Source: Saccostrea echinata (Eukaryota). Taken from it: 64,000 nt of DNA. The stretch lies in assembly GCF_033153115.1 (NCBI RefSeq), contig NW_026889803.1, positions 9,858,001 to 9,922,000 on the forward strand, given 5' to 3'. Each line of letters opens with the position of its first letter. Position 1 is the stretch's first letter. The position numbers and the translations under genes were made by a program. Under the pieces are notes generated by a model that saw only the letters and a list, made by a program, of their open reading frames with translations, was not told where the DNA came from and made no database searches. Positions 5,682-60,377 of this stretch are shown one piece after another.

Positions 5682-6147
5682 GTATGAACGATTCTCTTAC
5701 ATCCACTGAACGGTCCTTTATCAGTACTTAAACACAGCTAAGCAAGCCACCTAGATGTATTAATAGATTTCTTGAGCAGTTGCTAATCCATCAATGAGAC
5801 ATACAATGACGTAGATATCAATAACACAATATTTAACGTACTTAATTTTACATTACTCGTATATGATTATTTAAACAGATAAACAATGAAATGTTAAATT
5901 CTTTCTTTGTAAGTTCGGGAAATAACGATGCATTTATTGCAAAAAGAAAACAACAACAAAAAAACAACAAAAAACGCATCGGTATTTCGGTGATGAATTC
6001 CTATTTCATTTTTTCCAGTACATCCACCTGGAGCAACTGCTTCACTGGACAATGAAAAATCATAGTCACTGCAAAATAATGAAGATATATTAATATGCTT
6101 TATAGTTTGAAGAAATAACATTTATCAAAACTTCATTTTATGTCCAG

Positions 6148-6573
6148 GTTTTCGCCAAGACGTTTAGAAGAATACTAAAAGTAATATCAGACAACGACCC
6201 AAAGGAAGTGAGATGTATGAACAAATCCTATGTTGCAAAACGAGGATGGGTTTTTGAGTTCAATAATGTGACGTTTTTCATAACAACATTTGGACCGTTT
6301 TATCCAAAAACAAACAGCAGATATGCGTTCGGTTGTGAAAACTGCTTTATTTTACTTCAACCGGAGTTGAGTTTTGCGCTTCATGATTTATCGCCAAGCA
6401 GTTCAGAGACAAGTTACGAAAACCCTACAACAGAAAGGGACAGAATTAGGTGTGCATACAGCAAGGCGGGGAGACCGTATATAATACCACGTGATATTAC
6501 TCAGCCAATGGCATGGGACATGATAAAGCCCATCGCAGATGATGATGCAATCATTCAGTGGTGGACACAATAA
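6148..6573 (+). CDS. Last exon of a YqcI/YcgG-like protein (5' exons outside the window)
   Basis: TGTCCAG acceptor and 142 codons to TAA. The motifs W.FEF...FFITTFGPFY...SRY...LLQP..SF and R..IR recall the YqcI/YcgG C-terminal half. Confidence 0.7.
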   Translation, partial: VFAKTFRRILKVISDNDPKEVRCMNKSYVAKRGWVFEFNNVTFFITTFGPFYPKTNSRYAFGCENCFILLQPELSFALHDLSPSSSETSYENPTTERDRIRCAYSKAGRPYIIPRDITQPMAWDMIKPIADDDAIIQWWTQ

Positions 6574-36195: not shown

Positions 36196-38068
36196 TATTT
36201 GTTGATTTAGTCAAATTCACCACTTCAATAATAACTAGAACTGTCCAAAAGGGACAAATACCCCCGCTGGGTTTTTCAGAGAAGTGACAAATCACTAATA
36301 TTTTATGCATCTAAGAGGTGTTCACACTTTACTTAAATTGCTCATTACATATTTTTAATGAAGGAAACTAAGGTGCAACCTAATAAAACATCAATACTAA
36401 TTATTACATTTTTTATTACATTGAAAAAATAAATTACAACTATCTATCATCATGAGACATGACACTCTGCAAATTAATTGTTGAAAAAAAAAAATCATAT
36501 TTAATTATACAAAATCAAATTAATCTTGATAACTTTACATCCAAGTCATTTTAAAAATAAAAGGCTGGTCATCCAGTAAATTCATGTATGCATTTTGACA
36601 GACTATAAATTGAGAGAGATCTTTAATTCTTCTGCCAAATTCCCAGGAGATACATATATAGATGCTTGATCAGAGATGCCCTAACAGTTTCCCACATTGA
36701 ACTCCTTTAATTAATCTTTAACTGGATGCATATCCACTCATTAATCCCAAGGGACAAATGGATTTAAGATAACTGCTTTGTAATGCACTGTGTACAATAG
36801 AAAAGGTATATCTATGTCATTCTATTGAAAACAAAGATTTTTTTCCTTTTAATCTGTTACAAAACTTTATATAATGGAAAAAAAAGAACTGTGTAATCTT
36901 GATGCAACATATTTAATAGGGTTACTGCATGACTCTTGGATTTGTAGGGATTATCTGTCAAAAAAACTTTTTTTAATACTTGGTGATTTTATTTTTAGTT
37001 TTAATGAGTAGTTTTAAGCTGTAGTTCACATTTTTGTACAGATGTACCAACTGGCAGTTCTAGATTCTATGTCTCAGACCTATATAAATCCAACATGACT
37101 AAGTCAATAAAAACAAAACAAACAAAAAAACACCTGTAAAATGCAGAAAAATTAACCAATAATGATGAGAATAGCAGGTGCACACCTTCATATAATGAAT
37201 AAAAAGTTTACAAATTTTTCAGACAAATCTATGCAATAGTCTCTGAGAAAAGGTCCAGACAAAATCGCGTAATAAAAATGAAAAAAAAAAAAAACACCTG
37301 TAAAATGCAGAAAAATTATCCAATCATGATAAAAATACCAGGTGCACACCTTCATATGAATAAAAAGTGTACAAATTTTCAGACATATCCATGCAATAGT
37401 CTCCAAGAACAGCTCTGGACAAATCTCCTCTACAGACAAACAGACAGACTTACAGACATGGTGATTCCAATATACCCCCCCTAAACTTTGTTTGCAGGGG
37501 GGTATAATTATGAATCATAATTTTATGGACAATGGTCCTACCAATAAGATTTTTGTCATGTTTCTTATTTGATGAACATTCAATTTCAAGAATCGACTCA
37601 AAAAGAAATCCACAAAAATAAGTGTTCATAATGATAAAACCACAGTATGCCCTCAGTATATATGCTAGATGTCAAAGGTAAAGATGGACATTTTTCAAAT
37701 GTATTATTGCATCTTCACTCATAGCCCTGCCCAAACAGCAGAACTGTTGACACAGGATTCATGATGAATTTCATGAATGGTAGAAATGTTCATGATTATT
37801 CAAACCATGTATTTAGTTTGTTTGCTACAGAAAGAAGACCAAACAAATTTTACTTTTTACCAAAAATTTATGGCCCCTGGGGTAAGGATAATTAAATTGA
37901 CAAGTTGTGTTCTTTCCACACAGATGTTACAAAGCTGAAGTATATCATTACTGACACACAGGAATAGCTATACTTTATCTTGGTGACACAGGTGACCCAA
38001 AAATGAAGACAGCCCAAAAAAAAAGCTGCCCAAAAAAATCACTTAAGCATTTGTAATGCTTAAAAAAT

Positions 38069-41000
38069 TCAGTAATCCCAATCTTTAACTTCCATAATTC
38101 TCATAGTAATCAATGCTTTGAAAATTATTTTACGGTCTTCACTCTTTAAGAAATTGAGCTGTTTTGTGTAAAATAATATTGGTTCTTCATCCTTTGTTGA
38201 ATCAAATTTCACAGATCCAGGTTTGTTTCTTCTTTTTATTTTTTCAAAGCTTTCTGGTTTGATTTTCAGGAAAGTAAATAATACCTGCAAAAATAAATTT
38301 GACTATTAAATCTTTTAAACAAATAAGCCATCTTTCCAAGTCAAGGGTTTGTGATCCACTCCACTCCACATACACCCTTGACCAAATAGACTGACTTTGA
38401 CGGGGTTTACTATCGCACCATCTAGTGAAATTACACGTTTTGAACTCTATTGCCCTCTGCTATTGACCAATTAGAGTAAGCGATTTAAATAGAGAATGTG
38501 AGACAATATTGAAAGTTGTTAATAAATTCACTCCAAAGCCGAGACAATCCTTTAACTTGGTCATTTAATGTAAAGATATTTTCGTTGGGACAATAACTCG
38601 ACAGGTGTGTTTTTCTGTTAATAACGATTAAGTTTCTGGTTAGATAAAACAATGTTTTTGATTGGCTCATGCAAACTTTAATGAGGGAAATCAGAGAGCG
38701 CTTTCTAACCTGTTGGTCTATTTGATCAAGGGTTTATGTGGAGCGGAGTGGATCAGAAACCCTTGACTTGGGAAGATGGAAATAAGCATGCTTCATTTCT
38801 AATTTCGAAAAATTGTCTTTTTTTCTTCTTCATATAATTGAGATAGAATTTTCCATGTACATAAATGTCTCCCCTACAGATATGGTTGGGAGAAGGATTT
38901 TACACAGATGTCTGCTATGACCTTGACCTTTGCCCTATAAACTTGGTTCAAGATCACTGCACACTTATTACCCAAAAGCATTCTGTGGGTGAAGTATGAC
39001 CAAGATTGGGCCAAGGGAAGAGGAAATATGGTTTTTACAAAAGGATCAGCTATGACCTTGACCAAAGAGCTAGAAACTTGGTTGAAGGTCATTGCAAACC
39101 CTTTACCCAAAGGCACCAACTGGGTGAAATATGAGTCAGAATGGGCCTAGTGGTGAGAAAATATGGTTCAGTCAAGTGATATCAGATGGAAAGACATGCA
39201 AGATGAAAAGACTGATCCCTATAGGGTGCCCGCAGAGCGAGGCTCTAATTACAGTCTCCATTATCTTCAGAAGAAAATTTTTAACTTTATATTTATATAT
39301 ATTTCTTTATATGTGAAATATTCATGAAAAAGCAGAGTTCATGAATATTCATCAATGTAATTTTCATGCACAAATATTCATGATCCAAAAATGTCCAATA
39401 ATAATTAAGTTCATAACATTCCAAGCATTCAGAATAAATCATTCATCTTGCATTTACATGTATTGGTGTTCACTTTGACTCACGTTTGAGTGCTGTTTGC
39501 ACTCTGCATTTGCTCACCTTTCAGTGTTCAAAGACCATTCACTCACCGTTCGCTCACCATTTGTTCAGTGTTCTCTCACCTATCAAGTGGGAGAGTTTTC
39601 AGGGACTGTAATATTGACTCAGATTAAATGTTACTTACAGTTTTCACTTACATTTGTCTTTTGTATGACCATTCCAAGTAGACCTCGTTTTAAAACAGAA
39701 CTTTCCAAATACGCTAGCAGTTCTCCAACATGCTGGGCATATACATTTGATGACAGACCACCAATAGAGCTTGTACTGGAACTTGTCTCCTCATTTACAG
39801 TTTCCAATGTTGATGATGAAGAGCATGACTTTTTCTTAACTGGTGAAAAATCTGTTCCTTCTTCAGGATTTTTTCTTTTTACCTATTTAAAAGATGTTCT
39901 TCATATTCTATAATCTTAAATATAACAAAAAATTAGTTTTGATCATGCTTTAATATAGTCTTAACAAACACTTTAGTAAGATTGTATTTTTTATTCCAAA
40001 AATAGTAATTATTGTTCTTCTTCTGTTCTCTTAAATCATATTTTACATAATCAAATCTGATTACATTATTCTACTAATTTCATTAAACTACTATAAGTTA
40101 GCAAATCAGAACTATGAATTAGATCATGTGCTGGTAAAAAGTTAAGTATAGTCCTGACTGGACATAACATAACATGAGAGTGGACCCAGGGTTGTTTCTG
40201 TGTTTGATTTTGGTTAGCTCAGTATTTGCTCCTTGTACCCTTTGGGTCAACAGAAAGAGAATGCAACCTCCATCATTCAAATTAACTTTACACACACAAG
40301 TTTGAAGGGATTGATTGATTGTGTGTTGTTTTACGTCCCGTTCGAGAATTTTTCACTCACATAGAGACGTCACCATATACCAGTGAAGGGCTTCAAATTT
40401 ATACCTTTACTCGGCACTCAGGGCCATTGAGCAGTGAGGATTCTTTATCGTGCCAATGCCTAACGTGACACAGGGCCTCAGTTTTTAAGGTCTCATCCGA
40501 AGGACCCACAACTTTCACTACAAAGTGCTGAGCACTTGGCGAAGGAACAGTTACTACCTATTTTTTCATCAACTTAAGTCAGTCGCGGCCGTGATTCGAA
40601 CACATGACCTTCTGATCATAGAGCGAGCGCTCTACTGACTAAGCTACCATGAAGGGAAGCCAAAGTTAAAAGTTTTGATAATACTGGCCATTTGGTTTAA
40701 AGATATCTGACAAATTATAAACTGAAAGGGTGGATATGACCTCAAAGCACTTGCCCAACTTAATGCTCAACAGATGGAGAGAATACCCAAAATCAGGTAT
40801 TACCCATGAAATCACATATAATACACAATAGTGTGTATCGTTGAATCTGCGAAATCAGGTAACCTGTGCAACTTTCCTCAAAAGCAGAAAAATAAAGCAA
40901 ATAAGGTGCATTATGTCAGTAAGCATGGTATGTACCTCAATGTCTAAGGGGTTTAGAGGTCAAAAGTCAAAAACCACATGACTAACATGGTCGAAGTAAA

Positions 41001-44000
41001 AAGAATGACGGCAGCATCATTATTTTTCAATGTAACTATGATAAACAAATCACTTCAAGTGTTTTGTGTCTATTTCACAAGTATATTCCCTTAGCTTATG
41101 TGAAAAGTTTATGATGAGTATGACAACTGGCAACAACGATGATGAAGACAAAAGATAAAAAAAAATGATCAGAAAAGATTACTTAAGCCTTTAGCTCAGG
41201 TGTGCTAAAATCTCCAGCTCTATCATAATCCATCATAATGTATATGTATACATATGATTTAAAGTTTAAGTCTTACCTCACAGACACTTAATATAATCCT
41301 TGGATCATCACATTTAGTGACAAGAATATCAGCTTTTGAGGAGATTTCTTGTCCAAATATTGTGGCATGTCCCATTGGTAAATATGATTGTGTCCTACAA
41401 ATCAAATAATTTGTTTACAATTTTTTTTTAAAATTAGAACATGTAGTAATACACATCTGCACTCCATAGTAACCATATCAGCACAAATGGTCTGTGGCCC
41501 ATATGAATCACCTGTAATTAAACACAACCCTGCAAAAGCTTAATAAAACACTCTGTTTGCCAGTTAACATCAATATCATAATTTGAGCAATGTGACCCAT
41601 ATGGCCTCTTGTTGTGATTAATTGTCATGCAATGACAATTAAACACCACAGAAGGCAATGAGCTACATGTACATTGCTCTAAAAATTAAATATAAGTTTG
41701 CTTCCATATCAATTTTACAAATTTCATCCCAAGAAGATCTAATATAGTACACTACAGTCAACAAGGATCCCTTATTTTCCGCAAGCTCTTGTAAAATGCA
41801 TTTTGGCACAGGTGTCTGAACCCGTCACCTTTCCTGTTCTTGAGAAGAAAATTTTCCGAGGTGTTCCTGTGTATAATTTTGATCTCCTATTGTGGCCCTG
41901 CCCTACCCCTGGAGTGTCATGATTTGAACAATATTAAATCTATATGTACACTACCTATGGATGCTTCTGTATCAATATGATTTATAACGGCTTTGCTGTT
42001 CTTGAGAAGACGATTTCTACGCAAATTGCCCATATATTCCTATGTAAAACTTTGATCCCCTGTTGCAGACCCCCTGTTCCCCAGGGGTCATGATTTGAAC
42101 AAAACTAATCTACACTATCTGAGGATGTTTTTGTATAATTATGACTATTCAAGGCTTTGCTGTTCTTACAAAGATTTCTGAAGATATTTCCAATATAATT
42201 CTATGTGATCTACACTATCTGAGAAAGATTCTATATTAATATGATTAATGAAGGCTTTGCTGTTCTTGAGAAGAAGATTTTTCAAGATATTTCGTACATA
42301 AATATATGTAAAACTTTGATCCTCTGTTGTGGCCCTGTCCTAACTCCAGGGGTCATGACTTTGCCAAACTTGAATTTACACTATGTAATGAAGCTTTCAT
42401 ATATGTTACATCTGTTCTGACCCAGTGGTTCTGGAGGAGAAAATTTTTAAAAGATGCTATTAAATTTTCACTAATTCTTAATTATATCCCCTTGAAAGAG
42501 GGTGTTGCCCTAGGCCATCATTGGAACAACCTGAAGTCGCTTCATCCAAGGATGCTTTTTTGCAAGTTTGGTTGAAAATGGCCCAGTGGCTCTGGAGAAG
42601 TCAACAATGTGAAAAGTTAACAGACGATTGGACAGACGGACGATGGACAAAAGGTAATCAGAAAAGCTCACTTGAACATTCGGTTCAGGTGGGCTAAAAA
42701 TATGCTCACAACAAAGATTCAAGGTCACTGCACACCCATTATCCACAAGCAATCTATGGATGAAGTATGAGACAAATAGGGCTATGACAAGAGAAAATAT
42801 GCTTCAGGCAAGGGTTTTCTAAAAGGATGTGCAATTACCTTGACCTCTGATCTAGAAACTTTATTCTTTACCAACAAGCCATCTATGGTTGAAGTTTGGA
42901 GCAGACAGGAGCAAGGGGGAAGAAAATGTGCTCCAGACAAGGATTTTACATAGATTTGATGTATCATTGACCTTTGATCTAGAAACATGGTTCAAGGTCA
43001 CTACATATACATCCTTTATTGATGAAGGTTTAGCAGGATTAGACCAAGGGGAGATAAAATATACTCTGGAAAAGTGATATAGGACAGACAATTGGGTGGA
43101 CTGACAGACTGACTGATCACTATAATAGGGCTCCAGCAGAGAGGTACCTTAATAATTAGTGTGCAGTGCTAGTGTAGAGAGGGTTCTTAATGGCGTTTCA
43201 ATCTTCTTCTTACCTGTCTTTTTCAAGTACGTTAATATAATCACAAATTAAATAAATACATGTACATGTATAGAAGATTGACTCCCAATGGCTAATTCAT
43301 GAATACACTATCAGCTGAAGAGCAGTATTGAGGAGCTAAATTTGGAGTGCACTTTTTCATGAATGTTTAGAGTATTCCAGGATATTCATAAAAGAAATGT
43401 TAAGGAATAGTTCTACACTGGTATTAATTGTTACCATTACTGCAGCATCCATCATCCAATATGGTGATGAAAGAGAAGGTCAAGACATTCTCAGGTCTTC
43501 TTTACTATATATATTTAGCACAACATGAAGCTACATGGCAGAAAAATTAAATGCAGGATTTTTTAAAACTTGACAATGTCATTTACTTTGAAATTATGTC
43601 ATTGACCAATTTAAAATGTTTTGCAATGCATCTAGTGTGTTTATATATATATGTCAGATGTATGTCTTTATCAACTGTTTTAAATTTATGTGAACTAAAG
43701 AAAAAATCTAATTTTACTAAATTTGTGACAGTTTAATTGCTCTCACTCTTATGTATCTTTGTTTAAAGCTTGATGAAAAAATCTTGAACAATTTCTTTGA
43801 AACTGATCTATACACTAAGCTAAACACAATTCATAATATTCATTTTACTCATTCTGTTTCTGCCTAAACCAAGAGATGGAACAGGACACATAGTCAGAAA
43901 TACTGAATAAATTTTTCTTTTTTTTTTTTTTTAATTATGTAACTCAAATATGGACCAATGAATATTTGTTTGGACCAGTATATTTCATCAAATCAAAGGT

Positions 44001-46589
44001 CCACTTAACCATTGAATTTTTTTTTAATTTAAAAAACTTCACTAGTATTCACATTAGGCAAGTTCTCAGCCTGAGAATTTCATGACTTTTTCCTGTCATT
44101 GCTATGTTGGATGATGATTACTGCAGTAATGGACAGTCGGTTAGTACCAGTGGTTCTAGAAATGTACCAGGGTTCTTGTATATATACTTACATGACTTTA
44201 AATTCAAACAATTTAAGAAATTTTTCAAAGAGAATTTGATAATCAATTTCATATGGCAACTGGCTCTCTCTTTTTTCGGGCTGGTGTATTTGCTGCATGG
44301 TGTCAAACAGAAAATATCCAAACTCTTCACAGTTTTCACTGAACCTAAAATGCCAATAAAAAAAAATGTAACCACTTTTATATTTAAACTATTCAAGACT
44401 GAACTGATTTCTGCTTTTTCCTAGCCAAAGTGCTCAGGTGAGCAATGTGGCCCCTGGGCCTCTTGTTTTTTTGTTTTTTTTTTGTTTTTTTTTAAATAGT
44501 CTGCAGTGTTTTCAATAAGAGCTGGCAACCAGCAAAATTAACTGCCTGTACAAGAAATTTTGCTGGCTATGAGATTTTAGTCATTGGGATTTTGCCTATA
44601 AGATTTCAGTCATTGGGATTTTGCCGGGGTTAATGGTACATGAAATCCATAGATTTAATCGCAACTATCTACATGATCTAGAGTAACTTCCCTTGAGTGC
44701 ACTCTTTTTCTTGAAAGTTTAATTTGATCCAAATTTCACATACTAGGCTACAACTTGCGAGAGTAAAGTTTAAAGAATATTTCTTTTTTATTTAAGTAAG
44801 TAAATTCTTTATTTCCAATTCTGGGCCCATTCATGGCATATGAGAACAAATCAAACATAAATAAGAGAAGAAACAAATAAACAATAGAGAGGGCAAGAGA
44901 ACCAAAAGATAGATAACAAAGTAGCTAAGGTTTTGACAACGAACTCTGTATATTTACTGCTTCATTGACATAAGCTAAATATTTAAAGATTTTGATGATA
45001 TTGTATTATTTATAACTCCAAAAGTGAATGTTTAGTAAAATGTCTTTTTGGTGACAGAATCTAACAAAATCATCTAGAAATTGCTGTACAGCTGAACATT
45101 GCCAAATTAAATGATATATTGTTTCTTCCTCTGCTTTACAAAATGTACATAGAATCATGATAGATTAGAATATATAATGATTGATTCTATATTGAAGCCA
45201 TTGTAATTTACTGTTTTGGGTTGTTACAAAAGGTAGATACTAAATTGCTTTCCAGTGCATGTGTGTATCTGTCAAGTTGAAGAAATTTGACCATTTTCCC
45301 ATACCCACAGGTTTTATTACTGATTTATTTTGCACATCATGCATAGGCTTTGATCCTTTTTGGTCAACACAAAGACTTTGATATCGCATGGAATTTCTGG
45401 TTTATGAATGTATCCATTTTAAATTTACAAAAGTTATACCTTTTTAAATTTATCAGTATTGCTTGTTGTATGCCTGTATAAGTTAAATGGTTGATATGAA
45501 TATCATATAATTTTGTTGAATGTTGTCTAATGTTAAGAAGTTACTATTCTCATCTAAAAGATCATGTAAATATTTTTTTTCCTTTACATACCAGGACTAA
45601 TAGAATACTGTTTTTTTTTTTTTTTACTGATTTTTAATCTTTTTATCTTGTCTATACATTTCAAGATTTGATTTCCATAAAAGAACTAAAAATCAATTTA
45701 TTAATTTAAGACCTTTTACAACACCTAATGGTGGTTTGGTAAAGTAATAAATATGATTAAGGTGTGATATAAGAAGTGATTTAATAATGTAATTCTTTCA
45801 ATAGGAGTTAAGTTTCTTTTTTTCCATTGCTCAATGATGGTCTTAATTTTTGCCCATTTTTTTTTTTTTTCATAATTCAATTTAATCATCTTTGCTAGGC
45901 CATATGAATTAATTTATAATTTGTTGAGGATGTAAATTTGTGTGTGAGGGGACTCACAAAATCAATGAAAATTGAGCCTCCACACATTCTAATGTTACCA
46001 CAGTCAGGCACAGTGATTGATTCATGAAAACCAAATGAAATCATACAGTATGCAATTTTTAAGTAGGTCCTTTTGGATAAACTGTGTACAAGTCTTATTT
46101 AGTTGATGATGAATTGCCCTGCTATTCTAAAAGTGCTCAGTCTCCCATTTCAATAATATCAACTTACAATTTAAGCTCTTTGACTGTTGTCTTTGGAAAC
46201 CACTCCTGTACCCACTGCTTATAAGGTTTGGTCTCATCATATGGTATCTCCTCCAATGAATCGAAATCAACACACGGTAAACTGCATATTTTAACAATTT
46301 CATCAATTCTAGATAATTCAGCGTCTGTCAAATTACATAATGACCATTCTGTTCGTACCAGTTCAAATGGGCTTGTCATTACCCTTCTAATGCCAAATTT
46401 ATCTATCAAACCATTAGACCAAGAGCTCGGGTTACTTGGAAAGTCGTTTTTGTCTGAGCTTCCATGCGAACTGGGACAAGAAAAATCGCTATTTGTTGAA
46501 GAGTCATTCTTTGTCATTGTACTTGACAACGGAGGGGAGGGTGTCTCTTCTTTCTCCATTTTATCATTAGTTTTCTTTTCACTTTTCAT
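38069..46589 (-). CDS. PD-(D/E)xK restriction-endonuclease-fold protein, 379 aa (exons 46589-46168, 44344-44192, 41394-41277, 39882-39652, 38284-38069)
   Basis: Five exons with GTAAG donors and YAG acceptors, phases 2,2,0,0, giving a 1140-nt ORF with no internal stop. Motifs are EIDYQ, KADILV, VCE|VK and YAQHVGELLAY. The start codon is the first in-frame ATG and is less certain. Confidence 0.8.
38328..38779. mobile_element. MITE with ~60-bp TIRs in the last intron of the nuclease gene
   Basis: CCATCTTTCCAAGTCAAGGGTTT... / ...AAACCCTTGACTTGGGAAGATGG, with TSD AAATAAG. Confidence 0.85.
40311..40649 (-). mobile_element. tRNA-derived SINE
   Basis: Same core as the 14033 copy, reversed, with a (CAAT)n tail and TGAAGGGA on both flanks. 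Confidence 0.85.
41830..42698 (+). mobile_element. HINE with degenerate central repeats
   Basis: Repeats of GGCTTTGCTGTTCTTGAGAAG..GGGGTCATGATTTGAACAA and a 3' AAAAGCTCACTTGAAC..CAGGTGGGCTAAAA end. Confidence 0.75.
44790..45860 (-). mobile_element. Degenerate L1/Tx1-type LINE 3' fragment
   Basis: Minus-strand remnants WKKRNLTPIERITLLKSL, KLQWLQYRINH and CTFCKAEEETIYHLIWQC (zf-RVT-like), with stops and frameshifts. Confidence 0.75.
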
Positions 46590-46760: not shown

Positions 46761-47769
46761 ATCTAGAGAATAGAACATTATATATAAATATTAAATTGTT
46801 TATATCTATTTCCATATCTAATTTATATTGTCTTTATTTTTAAAAAATAAAAATTATCAAATGTTATTTTTTGCTGTTTTAAGTTAATTAATAAATTAAT
46901 TCATCCAGATGCAGATATATCCCCTACTACCCAAACTCCGTCACCATAAGCGGAAAACACGTCAGGTTACTCTCTGAATTATTTTTTTTATTTGTTTCAT
47001 GTTTGCTACACTTAGTAATGAACTTAAACATTGTTTTCAGAACTATCTAAAAAAAAAAATCAGTTAATATTGGACTTATACAAAACTACTATAAATAGAA
47101 CGCGTATCACATCCTAGTTAGAATAATCTAGCTGTGTCTCGGGACAAGCCCTCACCACCGGGTCCGCAGGACAATATCTAACGATAGAACGTTCTATCTA
47201 ATCACATCCGTGTACATATCGTCCAATGAACCTAACTCCGTCACCATGCCCTCTACAATATGTCAACGTATTAATTAGAAAATAAATTTCCAGTTTAGTT
47301 TTTTCTCCCTTCATCTTAAACTTGTAGACATAGAAAATTAGCTTTGACGATTTTTAAAAATGGTATTAAATTGCATTTTAGGAAAAGTATCAACAACAGA
47401 GAAAATAACGTTAATATAACATATTTTATATGTAATAACGTCATGCTACGTTATCTCCAACGTGTAGCATATACGGATAAATTGAAACGAAAAATGAAAT
47501 ATTTTAGGCCGTATTCAATATGGTATGTCATATTAATCCTTTAATTGGCAAAGACGTTCATAATTATAATTATGACTGACATGTAAAAATGAGTATATTG
47601 ACGCACCTGTCGGAGGTATCGATGGAATAGTGCCTAAAGGAAAAAGTACTTACTGATTTCACATAAAATATGATAGATACAATAGATCATGTGTAACTGT
47701 TTTTTTTTTTATTTTTGACGCATTCTTGAACTTAATTGTAAAAATTTATCGGCATTTGATGGTAGATTT

Positions 47770-48635
47770 TCAGAACTTTCAATTATGTTACTAAAAATTC
47801 TTGATATCCCAAACATAATGTCCTATACTAAGAGTAATTTTATGAATTCATTAAAACAATCCATGAATAAAAAATACTCACTTGATTGGCAACACTCAAA
47901 TGAAACACTAAAAGAGGGCAAACTTGTCACTTATTTATTTCTGAAGAACAATTTTAGATTGGAAAAATATCTAATTTTATTAAAACCTGAATACAGAAAA
48001 CCAATATGTAGATTACGTGTATCAGCGCACAGACTTTTCATAGAATTAGGCAGATATAATAACACACCCAGATCAGAGAGAATATGTAAAAATTGTATGC
48101 TTAATTAAACTGAAGATGAAGAACATTTCCTTATTCACTGTAGCAAATTTTCAAAGGAAAGAGAAGACCTATTTAACCTGATCTCATCTAAAGTAAAACA
48201 TTTTACAGATTTGCCTGATAAACAAAAATTATTCTGGATTCTAAATTGCGAAGAACTAGATATACTAAACTCTCTCGGAAGATTTTTACAAAAAATATTA
48301 CCATAAATTTTAGGAATGTAACTTTTTTTTATTATTATTAATTATGTAAAAGTATGATACTTTCAAGTATATGGTTTAGTAATGTATGCATATATATATA
48401 TATATGATGCACTGTATATATACCTATAAAACAAGTCTTATGTTCATATAAAATATTTTGGGTATTCCCCTACTTGTATGTCTTTTCTATCAATCAAGCA
48501 ATTCTTTCCCTCTTATGTATATGTATATTGTATTTCGTGTGTATGATCATAATCATTATATACATTTTAACAATGTACTTTCTTTTTGCCCCATGAGGGC
48601 CCTTAATTGGTCAATAAACGAATTGAATTGAATTG
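47770..48635 (+). mobile_element. 5'-truncated CR1/L2-group LINE 3' end
   Basis: GKLVTY..K..F.LEKYL...CRLRVSAHRLFIELGRY...ERICKNC...EDEEHFLIHC, then AATAAA and a (GAATT)n tail. Confidence 0.8.
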
Positions 48636-54719: not shown

Positions 54720-55525
54720 AGAGAGCATCCCCTGCCGACCGGTCACACCCGCCGTTTGCTCCTTGTCATGATCGGGAAAAAAACAAACCTGAAAAATCCG
54801 TTGACAGTTCATTATATAGATAATGGCCTAACAACTAGTATGAAAAACGTCAGTTAGTATTTGACTCAATGATAGGTTGAATGCGCTGAAAAGGTCATTG
54901 TATCGACCGTAAAACTTGCAAAAAGACGACTTCAAACGTTGATAATTATCCTTGTTTCAACAACTTGTTTGTCAATAGCTTGCCTCGTTTTAGAAATTGT
55001 TCATACATGCTCGCTTGCGTATCGAATCAACTGAGAGACATAAACCCCATATGTAGGTGATAAGGGCATATTGCTACGTAAGTAAGTGAAGTTTACGATT
55101 GAAAAGTTGAAGTCATCACGTTTATCATAATGGTTTGTTGTTAGGTTACCATTAACGTCTTTTTCTAGTAAAATATCTAAATATGAAAATTAAACAGATC
55201 TGTCAGATTCAGTGGTATCTGTCAGATTCAGTGGTATCTTTTCTTTCAAGCTCATTGGGATATATCGAGTTGACATATGAATGAAAGTAACTACATGTAC
55301 ATGTATTGTTAATTGATAATACGTCGTCGATATATAGAAATGTCGAGTTGAAGGCCACAACAAGTGTTTTCTTCTTCTCATGTAGACGTTTTTGAATAAA
55401 TTCTGCTTCATATGAATACAAAAATAGGTCTGCTAATAAGGAGGCGCAATTGGTGCCCATGGGAATTCCAAAAGATTGTTGGAAGACCTGATCTCCAAAA
55501 ACAACATAGACATTGTCAATCAGAA
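54720..55525 (-). mobile_element. Degenerate Penelope-like RT fragment
   Basis: LIDNVYVVFGDQVFQQSFGIPMGTNCASLLADLFLY...YIDDVLSINN, frameshifted downstream. Confidence 0.8.
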
Positions 55526-55529
55526 ACGA

Positions 55530-56420
55530 TAAATCCTCACTGCTCAAAGGTCCTGAGTGCCGAGTAAAGCCCTTCATAGGTATATGGTGCCGTCTCTATG
55601 TGAGTGAATAATTCTCGAAAAGGACTTAAAACAACACACAATCAATCAGTCAATCCCTTCACGCTTAATTGAGCGTTTAAAGTTAATTTGAAAGGTTGAG
55701 GTAGCATTATCTTTCAGTGGACCCAAGGGGTACAAGGAGCAAATACTTAGATATAAACCAAAGCAAACACAGAAAGAATCCTGGGTCCACTCTTGTGTTA
55801 TGTCCAGTCAGGACTATACTTAACTTTTTACCAGCACATGATCTAATTAATTCATTGTTCTGATTCGCTTACTAATAGTAGTTTAATGAAATTAGTAGAA
55901 TAATGTAATCAGATTTGATTACGTAAAATAACTATCATCATGTGATGTTTTGAGAGAACAGATTAAGAACAATTATTTTTGGAATAAAAAAATAAAATCT
56001 TACTAATTTTCTTTATATTTGAGTTTACATAGAGAATATGAAGAACATCATAGGTAAAAAGAAAAAAAAATCCTGAAGAAGGAACAGATTTTTCACCAGT
56101 TAAGAAAAAATTACGCACTTCATCATCAACATTAGACACAGTAAGTGAGGAGACAAGTTCCAGTACAAGCTCTATTGGTGGTCTGTCATCAAATGTATAT
56201 GCCCAGCATGTTGGAGAACTGCTAGCGTATTTGGAAAGTTCTTTTTTAAAACGAGGCCTACTTGGAATGGTCACACAAAAGACAAATGTAAGTGAAAACT
56301 TGAGTAACATTTAATCTGAGTCAATATTACAGTCCCTGAAAACTCTCCCACATGATAGGTCAGCGAACGCTGAACAATTGGTGAGTGAACGGTGAGTGAA
56401 TGGTCTTTGAACACTGAAAG
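55530..56420 (+). pseudogene. Inverted duplicate of ~39520-40430, containing an orphan copy of nuclease exon 4 (56054-56287)
   Basis: Introns, a SINE piece and the exon all align. The exon is open (78 codons) with intact AG and GTAAGT sites. No other exons of the gene were found on the plus strand. Confidence 0.85.
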
Positions 56421-56451
56421 TAAATACAGAGCGCAAACAGAGAGTGAAAGT

Positions 56452-58751: not shown

Positions 58752-60377
58752 TTATTCTGTATATTTGATGACCGTCACATTTCCACTCTTGTACTCCCCC
58801 ACCCACAGTCTTCCCAGTGAGTCCACACTCAGTGCTCCACAGAAATCCAGACTACGGAGAAACTGACCGTCCTGATCAATGATGTGGGTACAGGAATTCC
58901 CGATATCCTTTACTATTATACGACCAGCAGAGTCTGTAACAATACTGGTAGGATTAAACTGCTTCTTCATCGATTGTTGTCCTTTATATCGGAATCGGAG
59001 TTTTCCTACCTTGTTCACCACAACAACATCCTTGCCATTGCAATCAGAGGCACATATATCACCGTTGTTGTTCTCCGCCACAAAGAGCATCTTATCTCCT
59101 TCTTTATATAGTGGGTTACCTTGGTCGTCCTTCTCTATCTCCTGCTTTATTGTTTGACTTTCATAGCGGACAATTTTATAATGTTCACCATTAGATGTGC
59201 GCATACTAACCAGTAAGTCACCAGATTGTGTGCAACACAGTCCTCCTGCTTTCCATCCCTGTGGTGCTGTGATATGTGCTGTTGTATGGTGGACATCATA
59301 AATTACTTTATTTACTACATCAGTGTATAGCAGATGTCCTTCTTTTGAAATTGAAATGTCACCAGGATAATTTAGACAAGTGGAAGTAACGGTCTCCTGT
59401 ACAGAACCCTGTATGTTAAAACGAGTAATGGTTTTATTCCTCCCCGTTATCCACACCTCCTCTGTATTAGCACATGCCATCCTCATCAACGGTGTTATTC
59501 CAGTGTGGAAGGCTGAGATTTCCACGGCCTTGTCTAGGAGCTCATTGGATACATCTAATCTGTAGATCGGTTCTGTTTGGATCTTGGGTTCCTTTAGTTT
59601 TCCGAAAACGTGGTAAAGTTTGCCTTTATCTATGTCCTTGGACACGAACATTGGTAGTTCCAGTTCTATATGTAAAGGAAGCTTAAGATACTTCTGAACA
59701 TTGCTTTCATATTTTGTGATGTAACCAACATTCTTGGATTGAGAGATCTCTTTGTTTTGCAGAGAAATTTCATTAAGGCTTGCAAGAACATTTTTGATCT
59801 CCTTCTGGTATTCTTTTGATTTCTTGATGCCATTTCCTCTCATTTCTGCAATATCTCTCTTGTTCTTTGCAACAATTTCTTCAATAAATCGCTGCCATTT
59901 TTGTCCATGCTCTGTAACTGATTGTTCTAATTCGTCACATTTAGCATTTAAAGTCGCTAATTTGGATTCTATTTCTGTATCTGCTTTTTCAAATTTTGGA
60001 ATGATATCGTCTTTTAGATAAGCTGTGTCCTTCTCCACAAGCTTTTTCATGTCATCAACGATGTCCTTAATTTCAATAATTCTATGACCGTTATGGGCTC
60101 CGCTGAGACATTTAAAGCAAACTTCTACATCACAATTCTGACATTTAACAGTGCACTTTTCGCCACTATGGGCTTTGCAGTTTGGAAATGAAAGGTGGAA
60201 TTTTCTCTCTCGGTATTTGACAACCTCGTGATTAGAGGATGATGACGTCATATAGTGTTTTCCGACACATTCTTCGCATAAGTTGACCTGGCAGGGATTA
60301 CAGTGAAGGAGGGCGGGTCTCCTGTCACAGTAGTGACAAAGGATGACTTCCTGTGCTTTAGTTGTACCGGTGGCCAT
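58752..60377 (-). CDS. TRIM-like copy 3, intact: RING-less B-box1/B-box2/coiled-coil/NHL-like beta-propeller protein, 541 aa
   Basis: CHYC..HCNPC..LCEEC..H and CKAH..C..CQNC..VCFKC..HNGH B-boxes, a heptad region, and propeller repeats. One coding exon with an acceptor at ~60413; ATG at 60377 (the track starts at an upstream TTG). Confidence 0.95.
   Translation of the reverse strand: MATGTTKAQEVILCHYCDRRPALLHCNPCQVNLCEECVGKHYMTSSSSNHEVVKYRERKFHLSFPNCKAHSGEKCTVKCQNCDVEVCFKCLSGAHNGHRIIEIKDIVDDMKKLVEKDTAYLKDDIIPKFEKADTEIESKLATLNAKCDELEQSVTEHGQKWQRFIEEIVAKNKRDIAEMRGNGIKKSKEYQKEIKNVLASLNEISLQNKEISQSKNVGYITKYESNVQKYLKLPLHIELELPMFVSKDIDKGKLYHVFGKLKEPKIQTEPIYRLDVSNELLDKAVEISAFHTGITPLMRMACANTEEVWITGRNKTITRFNIQGSVQETVTSTCLNYPGDISISKEGHLLYTDVVNKVIYDVHHTTAHITAPQGWKAGGLCCTQSGDLLVSMRTSNGEHYKIVRYESQTIKQEIEKDDQGNPLYKEGDKMLFVAENNNGDICASDCNGKDVVVVNKVGKLRFRYKGQQSMKKQFNPTSIVTDSAGRIIVKDIGNSCTHIIDQDGQFLRSLDFCGALSVDSLGRLWVGEYKSGNVTVIKYTE

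Follow-up and report, generated by a model that had tools for sequence, protein, structure and literature searches.

The 64,000-nucleotide (nt) window of the Saccostrea echinata genome described here is AT-rich, eukaryotic-type DNA and carries, on its minus strand, a five-exon gene for a stand-alone protein of 379 amino acids (aa) with a predicted restriction endonuclease (REase) fold. TRIM-like loci lie on either side of the gene, and an inverted partial duplicate of its exon-4 region is found elsewhere in the window (Table 1; all coordinates are window positions unless a contig is named).

The gene is real and spliced. Its four introns measure 1823, 2797, 1394 and 1367 nt, all have GT-AG ends and follow phases 2, 2, 0 and 0; the joined coding sequence of 1140 nt contains a single stop, at its end. 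Exons 1 and 4 appear as stop-to-stop open reading frames (ORFs) of at least 80 aa. Contigs from public sequencing runs skip the exact intron lengths at all four junctions in runs X2, X3 and X5 and at three of four in X1, with CT..AC ends on the plus strand; the four runs represent at most three samples from two studies, no run listed is recorded as RNA, the RNA status of the four is a guess by the tool, and the contigs carry no expression level. Since a protein search of the genome returned the gene exon by exon and found no intronless copy, these contigs point to spliced transcripts. Intron bins free of repeats (e.g., 44952-45599) have a contig depth of zero, while exon 1 is covered, with one contig extending to 46644. 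The five-exon model of the earlier note thus holds, and all eight motifs that it quoted are present in the spliced product: SNPSSWSNGLIDKFGI at residue 52, YEIDYQ at 172, SSKADILV at 210, SVCE|VKRK at 228 (split by intron 3), PVKKK at 245, YAQHVGELLAY at 279, GLLGMVIQKTNVLFTFLKI at 298 and LNFLKSEDRKIIFKAL at 351.

The gene had been regarded as hidden, but the model is identical to the RefSeq protein XP_061197000.1 (LOC133205250 isoform X1), and the locus is also annotated with isoforms of 335 and 325 aa. RefSeq assigns no function and labels the protein “uncharacterized”. Eight coding variants are listed in the contigs, five of them silent. C251R occurs in all four runs and restores the KKKxR patch of the family; S250L and E173D occur in run X5 only.

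Table 1. Features of the Saccostrea echinata window
Feature	Position	Strand	Remarks
Coding exon 1	46168..46589	-	aa 1-141; N-terminus rich in Ser/Thr and of low confidence, followed by the conserved P..T/S.S.W arm (W57) and a helical subdomain
Coding exon 2	44192..44344	-	aa 141-192; helix 142-161, core helix A 173-185 with predicted metal ligand E173
Coding exon 3	41277..41394	-	aa 192-231; core strands 2 and 3, D214 (family consensus S-x-P-D), E231
Coding exon 4	39652..39882	-	aa 232-308; K233, disordered insert with SPVKKK resembling a nuclear localization signal (NLS), core helix B with Q281-H282-x-x-E285, strand 4 with G301
Coding exon 5	38069..38284	-	aa 309-379 and stop; strand 5, a further strand, C-terminal helix with D358-R359
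3' untranslated part	37848..38068	-	contigs extend from 37848 or 37875 across exon 5 and connect to exon 4
Inverted partial duplicate of exon-4 region	55526..56440	+	82% DNA identity to 39493-40451
B-box/coiled-coil/NHL-like (TRIM-like) locus	15773-17397	-	single exon, frameshifted; no RING match
B-box/coiled-coil/NHL-like (TRIM-like) locus	21975-23566	-	single exon, frameshifted; no RING match
B-box/coiled-coil/NHL-like (TRIM-like) locus	58755-60377	-	single exon, intact; no RING match

Predicted fold and putative active site

An AlphaFold2 model built from 91 sequences (mean predicted local distance difference test, pLDDT, 84.2; predicted template-modelling score 0.82) fills the 379-aa product with one folded unit. 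Block means of pLDDT exceed 90 across aa 51-160, and confidence is low in residues 1-45 (pLDDT about 50 for aa 1-40) and 240-258. The core runs in the order helix 173-185, strands 190-193, 215-218 and 226-233, helix 276-288, and strands 298-305 and 308-315. Passages of PMC3424549 describe for the PD-(D/E)xK superfamily a core topology in which strand 2 begins with an Asp, strand 3 bears Glu-x-Lys and helix 1 carries a Glu. Since the topology and residue placement of the model match this description, the protein almost certainly adopts the PD-(D/E)xK fold, as far as a predicted structure can tell.

Comparison of the model with 48,161 solved chains by VIA-align yields three chains at Z >= 8. The top match is the mitoribosomal protein mL65 (Z 11.9, 220 aligned residues, root-mean-square deviation (rmsd) 4.7), followed by mL37 (Z 11.0, 208 aligned, rmsd 4.3), both spanning residues 45-377; the solved chains, labelled s and 5, are presumably mL65 and mL37 by the usual mitoribosome labelling. 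The nuclease domain of DrdV (Z 8.3, 137 aligned, rmsd 3.2) and BpuSI (Z 7.8, 144 aligned, rmsd 4.0) rank third and fourth, at values close to the background stated for the tool. Lower matches at Z 4-6, among them Uma2-type proteins, Cas4, HsdR and Hjc, belong mostly to the PD-(D/E)xK superfamily. A second model, of a Mytilus homologue that is 21% identical and carries E225, P265-D266, E288 and K290, shows the core elements in the same order and has the same top four matches (Z 12.1, 10.7, 8.3 and 7.9). The core topology, the VIA-align and Foldseek rankings and this second family member bear out the earlier proposal of an REase fold.

Structure neighbours in the Atlas are mollusc clusters first, followed by a mostly Mucoromycota cluster of 329 members (TM-score 0.54/0.75, query residues 50-375), fungal kinase-linked clusters, DUF6826 and bacterial HSDR_N (TM 0.45/0.74). 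In the Atlas feature search the nearest clusters are unnamed and mostly molluscan, and the nearest named ones, HSDR_N and PDDEXK_12 (score 0.76-0.80), serve as a lead only. The viral structure library contains nothing at E <= 1e-3, its top rows being DUF5898 and PD-(D/E)xK proteins. At the sequence level, a nine-sequence profile finds no match among solved structures, and three weak matches of the 91-sequence profile (E 0.016-0.17), all on one helix, were rejected as chance.

To describe the putative active site we use an alignment of 75 full-length members, comprising nine close relatives and 66 of the 150 listed matches (those of 290-480 aa; shorter ones were left out). D214 directly precedes strand 215-218 as the Asp of the PD motif and is conserved in 67 of the 75; the column before it holds Pro in 50 and Ala in the oyster copy. 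E231 and K233 of E231-V-K233 at the end of strand 226-233 are found in 48 and 49 members, respectively, and E173 at the start of helix 173-185 in 53. The second helix contributes Q281 (60/75), H282 (70/75) and E285 (46/75), and other conserved columns are W57 (69/75), G301 (73/75) and R359 (69/75). Among 95 columns with a charged majority residue, for which the median is 18/75, D214, E173, K233 and E231 rank third, fifth, sixth and seventh. The E/D/ExK/Q assignment of the earlier note is thereby upheld, as the residues sit at the expected core elements in the model and form the family consensus; its expectation of D/E/K conservation is borne out in part, since each residue is the majority state and ranks among the top seven of the charged columns, but D, E and K occur together in only 31 of the 75 members. 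XP_061197000.1, the oyster copy, retains E173, D214, E231 and K233.

In a quick IQ-TREE tree, well-supported branches force at least 14 changes in the D/E/K state. The codon of E231 ends exon 3, and E, K or Q occupies this column in 72 of 75 members; at the nine paralogue loci with an intact exon 3, the residue is E in six, K in two and Q in one. Because E, K and Q codons all keep the AG at the exon end, losses of E231 may follow a path that the splice site allows.

From their positions on strands and helices, the four putative catalytic side chains would converge on one metal site in the model. The oyster copy is probably catalytically active, and for this copy the activity is likely that of a nuclease, in view of its residues and their predicted placement.

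The gene family and its relatives among known systems

A profile search of 1.84 billion representatives assigns 170 clusters to the family at E <= 1e-3. Among 20 representatives looked up, those with a name belong to oysters, mussels, scallops, a pearl oyster and the nemertean Lineus, and four clusters are nameless. On 22 contigs of the S. echinata genome, three protein queries locate the family at 36 places that are separated by 100 kb or more; these are matches rather than verified complete genes, and alternative haplotypes may be among them. Five exons with matching boundaries were recovered at seven of 11 paralogue loci examined. With the closest paralogue (dS 0.40) as reference, the ratio of nonsynonymous to synonymous divergence (dN/dS) is 0.40; for five paralogues with saturated dS it ranges from 0.21 to 0.39. 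On these sequence comparisons the family is under purifying selection, constrained but fast-evolving. Two very similar copies lie on small contigs (G000:C72:2.198-2.211 Mb and G000:C117:0.352-0.380 Mb) and may represent either a recent duplicate or alternative haplotypes.

The proteins appear to be short and self-contained. The best 150 library matches do not exceed 479 aa, and a search for longer proteins with exon 1 returned only relatives of 304-386 aa. Pfam has no family for the exons, the complete protein or its close homologues, and among the 91 members any one Pfam family is matched by two at most and any PADLOC or NCBIfam family by one at most. Searches by topic, largely at the level of listings and abstracts, and by six gene ids in main texts found no publication on the family, with Zhang et al. 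2016, which may list such proteins, lying outside their scope; four Magallana gene ids gave no match in the paper supplements searched, including 11 of the 16 files of PMC8917759. We conclude that this is an undescribed animal REase-fold family, whose fold itself is well known.

Among active enzymes, the type IIG/IIL restriction enzymes BpuSI and DrdV and the N-terminal domain of HsdR (HSDR_N, PF04313) share with the oyster protein the PD-(D/E)xK core, the hairpin that follows it and a C-terminal helix; the alignment to the HSDR_N cluster of the Atlas extends over 201 residues. Unlike these enzymes, the oyster protein is eukaryotic, is encoded by five exons and lacks a methyltransferase, specificity or helicase module; moreover, it has an additional helical subdomain and, following the ExK motif, an insert that is basic and disordered, and there is no match to these enzymes at the sequence level.

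For both family members modelled, mL65 (MRPS30/PDCD9) and mL37 are the best solved matches (Z 10.7-12.1), and the N-terminal arm is part of the 208-240 residues aligned. These two are single-copy, non-catalytic rRNA-binding proteins, whereas the oyster family is multi-copy and fast-evolving, has the E/D/ExK consensus and lacks a presequence; identity between the two groups is 3-8%. The explanation that the oyster protein is a divergent mL65/mL37 paralogue working in mitochondria is favoured by this structural match but is very improbable in the light of the other evidence. Its identity to the two proteins is 6-7%, its Ser-rich N-terminus with a net charge of -1 does not resemble a presequence, and PDCD9 (PF07147) neither matches the query in Pfam nor is among the 25 of 33 families listed for the 91 members. 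The genome also has its own, separate PDCD9/mL65-family gene (G000:C9:11510060-11515857), and comparison of the family profile with the exons of this gene is not significant (hhalign probability 0.2). The best short segments in that comparison, likewise not significant, fall on the PD motif and on the G-x-x-x-x-x-T motif of the glycine strand.

The earlier note also pointed to a resemblance to an expanded fungal family, which finds support at the level of predicted structures. The unnamed, mostly Mucoromycota cluster is lineage-expanded as well, and DUF6826 (PF20713) and the N-terminal part of Pkinase_fungal proteins align with TM scores of 0.43/0.61 and 0.46/0.25, respectively, over query residues of about 50-376. 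Both sides of these comparisons are predicted models, there is no significant sequence link, and no kinase fusion is seen in the oyster family. DUF6826 matches two of the 91 members (best E 0.047) and leaves the query unmatched at the Pfam cut-off; a genome search with DUF6826 gave no match anywhere, and the controls likewise gave none.

A further comparison concerns the Crinkler/RHS (CR) effectors. Their REase domains are described, in the parts of PMC5289972 and PMC6131194 consulted, as eukaryotic, nuclear and expanded into families that free-living eukaryotes possess too, and it is in being a eukaryotic REase-fold domain of an expanded family that the oyster protein resembles them. In contrast to CR effectors, no ubiquitin-like/LFLAK header, signal peptide, NTPase or kinase was detected in the oyster protein. 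By architecture the family is not a Crinkler effector, and the suggested Crinkler membership is unsupported, in view of the missing header, the lack of an NTPase or kinase partner and the absence of a hydrophobic N-terminus. PMC12957317, as far as a term search of it extends, deals with a different, ADP-ribosyltransferase-linked Crinkler-like protein and does not mention oysters or bivalves.

Cellular location, substrate and role

Residues 1-45 are rich in Ser and Thr and have a highest 10-residue hydropathy of -0.29, and the first 50 aa contain no hydrophobic stretch; together with the net charge of -1 this argues against secretion or mitochondrial import. The loop after K233 contains a basic patch of the P-x-x-K-K-x-R type in 16 of the 18 closest sequences, and nuclear import by means of this patch is likely, to the extent that a sequence motif can indicate it.

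The best overall explanation, to which we would give an even chance, is that the spliced stand-alone protein is a metal-dependent, DNA-cutting REase-fold enzyme of the nucleus. By established PD-(D/E)xK chemistry and judging from their positions, D214 and E231 would be the Mg2+ ligands, with E173 in support, K233 would orient the attacking water and the scissile phosphate, and Q281 and H282 on the second helix would line the site, while the basic patch in the disordered loop would carry the protein into the nucleus. Whether the substrate is indeed DNA in the nucleus is likewise finely balanced. The oyster copy would belong to a dispersed family under birth-and-death evolution, with independent losses of catalytic residues in many paralogues. 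Active copies may serve in biological conflicts by cutting invading viral or mobile DNA or by killing the infected cell, and dead copies may act as binders or regulators. Such a defence role is the weakest step of the argument and, on balance, doubtful: it rests on the analogy that lineage-specific expansion, fast divergence and repeated inactivation also characterize eukaryotic conflict REases, as outlined in parts of PMC5289972 and PMC6131194.

A number of results weigh against an active nuclear enzyme. The two top structural matches, mL37 and mL65, are referred to in passages of PMC8998825 as non-catalytic “repurposed endonucleases”, and the matches to active restriction enzymes reach only about the background level of the tool. 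Whole-chain Foldseek TM scores are about 0.3, though the ranking agrees; E <= 1e-3 is reached by three of 500 matches for the first model and by none for the Mytilus model, and the alignments on which the two models are based largely overlap, so that the models are not fully independent. All four of E173, D214, E231 and K233 are present in only 27 of the 75 members, and H282, R359, T307 and G301 are better kept than E231 or K233, which would also fit a binding scaffold. Across the family a looser basic motif is found in only 39 of 75 members, and TRIM-like neighbours occur at one or two of 11 paralogue loci, where a uniform model predicts 0.79 (P(>=2) 0.18).

Several of these points would be accounted for if the protein were a catalytically dead or nearly dead REase-fold scaffold that binds nucleic acid or protein, like mL37 and mL65, with its acidic and Lys residues as decaying relics. 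We consider this unlikely, but with an appreciable residual probability. In its favour, at least one of the four residues is missing in 48 of the 75 members, the losses occur in scattered parts of the tree, E231 is not lost in concert with K233 or D214 (Fisher p 0.21 and 0.13), and close paralogues carry K in place of E231 on contigs C9 and C3 and Q in one on C13. Yet the four residues remain the majority state, within the top seven charged columns, among sequences that are only about 20% identical, which implies that catalysis is kept in many lineages; moreover, retention of E173 and K233 co-varies (p 0.002, with no correction for 21 tests or for relatedness), and the oyster copy has the whole set, as do P0001, P0005 and P0020, the full-length sequences nearest to it. 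Alternatively, an active PD-(D/E)xK enzyme might act on RNA, in transcript decay, shut-off or processing, to which we assign a small probability. The superfamily includes RNA-acting members (PMC3424549, in part), the closest solved folds, mL37 and mL65, contact rRNA according to portions of PMC8998825, and the oyster protein has no separate domain for sequence recognition. However, the closest catalytically active matches, DrdV, BpuSI and HsdR, are domains of DNA restriction enzymes, and the NLS-like patch points to the nucleus, which is yet compatible with nuclear RNA.

It is improbable that the gene is the nuclease cargo of a mobile element, with dispersed copies that reflect transposition rather than use by the host. 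The roughly 36 places on 22 contigs would suit this idea, and the title under which PMC5289972 cites Zhang et al. 2016 links eukaryotic Crinkler-type REases to transposons. Against it stand the conserved five-exon structure at seven of 11 paralogue loci and the age and divergence of the copies (dS from 0.4 to saturated); furthermore, the DNA common to the paralogue loci consists of exons and scattered repeats only, and the ORFs shared by their neighbourhoods are repeat- or retroelement-like, with no common partner gene.

In a wider reading, the stand-alone, intron-bearing proteins of bivalves and nemerteans might amount to a nuclear restriction system of animals, directed at viral or mobile DNA, in which repeatedly inactivated paralogues serve as regulators or decoys; the family would also be the closest catalytically complete relative of mL37 and mL65. 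We regard this wider proposal as speculative and rather unlikely; were it true, the family would show the kind of nuclease from which mL37 and mL65 were recruited. Few PD-(D/E)xK enzymes are known from animals apart from those that serve DNA repair or RNA processing and the endonucleases of retroelements. With dozens of stand-alone copies per oyster genome, a site like that of restriction enzymes and neither a Pfam nor a functional annotation, the family is a candidate DNA-level effector of bivalve immunity, relevant to viral disease of farmed oysters. The structural closeness to mL37 and mL65 is a lead on the origin of these mitoribosomal proteins, and even without nuclease activity the family would be a well-defined new family of pseudo-nucleases.

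TRIM-like neighbours and other features of the window

The REase-like gene had been placed inside a TRIM cluster and, from there, in an immune-type context. It is indeed flanked by TRIM-like loci, but it sits between two of them, at distances of 14.5 and 12.2 kb, rather than inside one. Genome-wide, a first look yields 1261 TRIM-like candidates, and among the 11 paralogue loci (600 kb), out of about 36 family places, a neighbour of this type is clear at one (contig C29) and weak at another (C9). As the family is dispersed and TRIM-like neighbours are about as frequent as expected by chance, the neighbourhood provides no evidence for an immune role, and the TRIM link looks incidental. At the C29 locus (G000:C29:5170001-5240000; 5.18-5.22 Mb), exon remnants of a degenerate family copy lie interspersed among several broken TRIM-like genes, which are related to those of the window; the locus may descend from an old segmental duplication of a block with TRIM and REase genes. 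A further B-box/coiled-coil/NHL-like copy is present at G000:C54:9929189-9929932.

The inverted duplicate contains an orphan exon-4 copy at about 56057-56287 with 88% aa identity and a dN/dS of 0.70 over 76 codons. No other exon of the family lies beside it in the window, and from these sequence features the copy is likely a decaying fragment.

Repeats occupy parts of the introns. Intron 4 contains an element of about 450 bp (38328-38779) that resembles a miniature inverted-repeat transposable element (MITE), has terminal inverted repeats of 64 bp (92%) and is also matched at a locus on C14; high-copy interspersed repeats in introns 3 (40309-40650) and 2 (41830-42700) recur at 9-11 of the 11 paralogue loci and have very high contig depth. 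Short retroelement-like ORF remnants are found at 47719-48108 on the plus strand and at 55209-55595 on the minus strand, the latter with a weak RVT_1 match (E 0.014). Finally, an exon-like ORF at 6106-6573 on the plus strand matches the Pfam family YqcI/YcgG, which is known chiefly from bacteria, with an E value of 5e-6 and 26.9 bits, just under the cut-off of 27.

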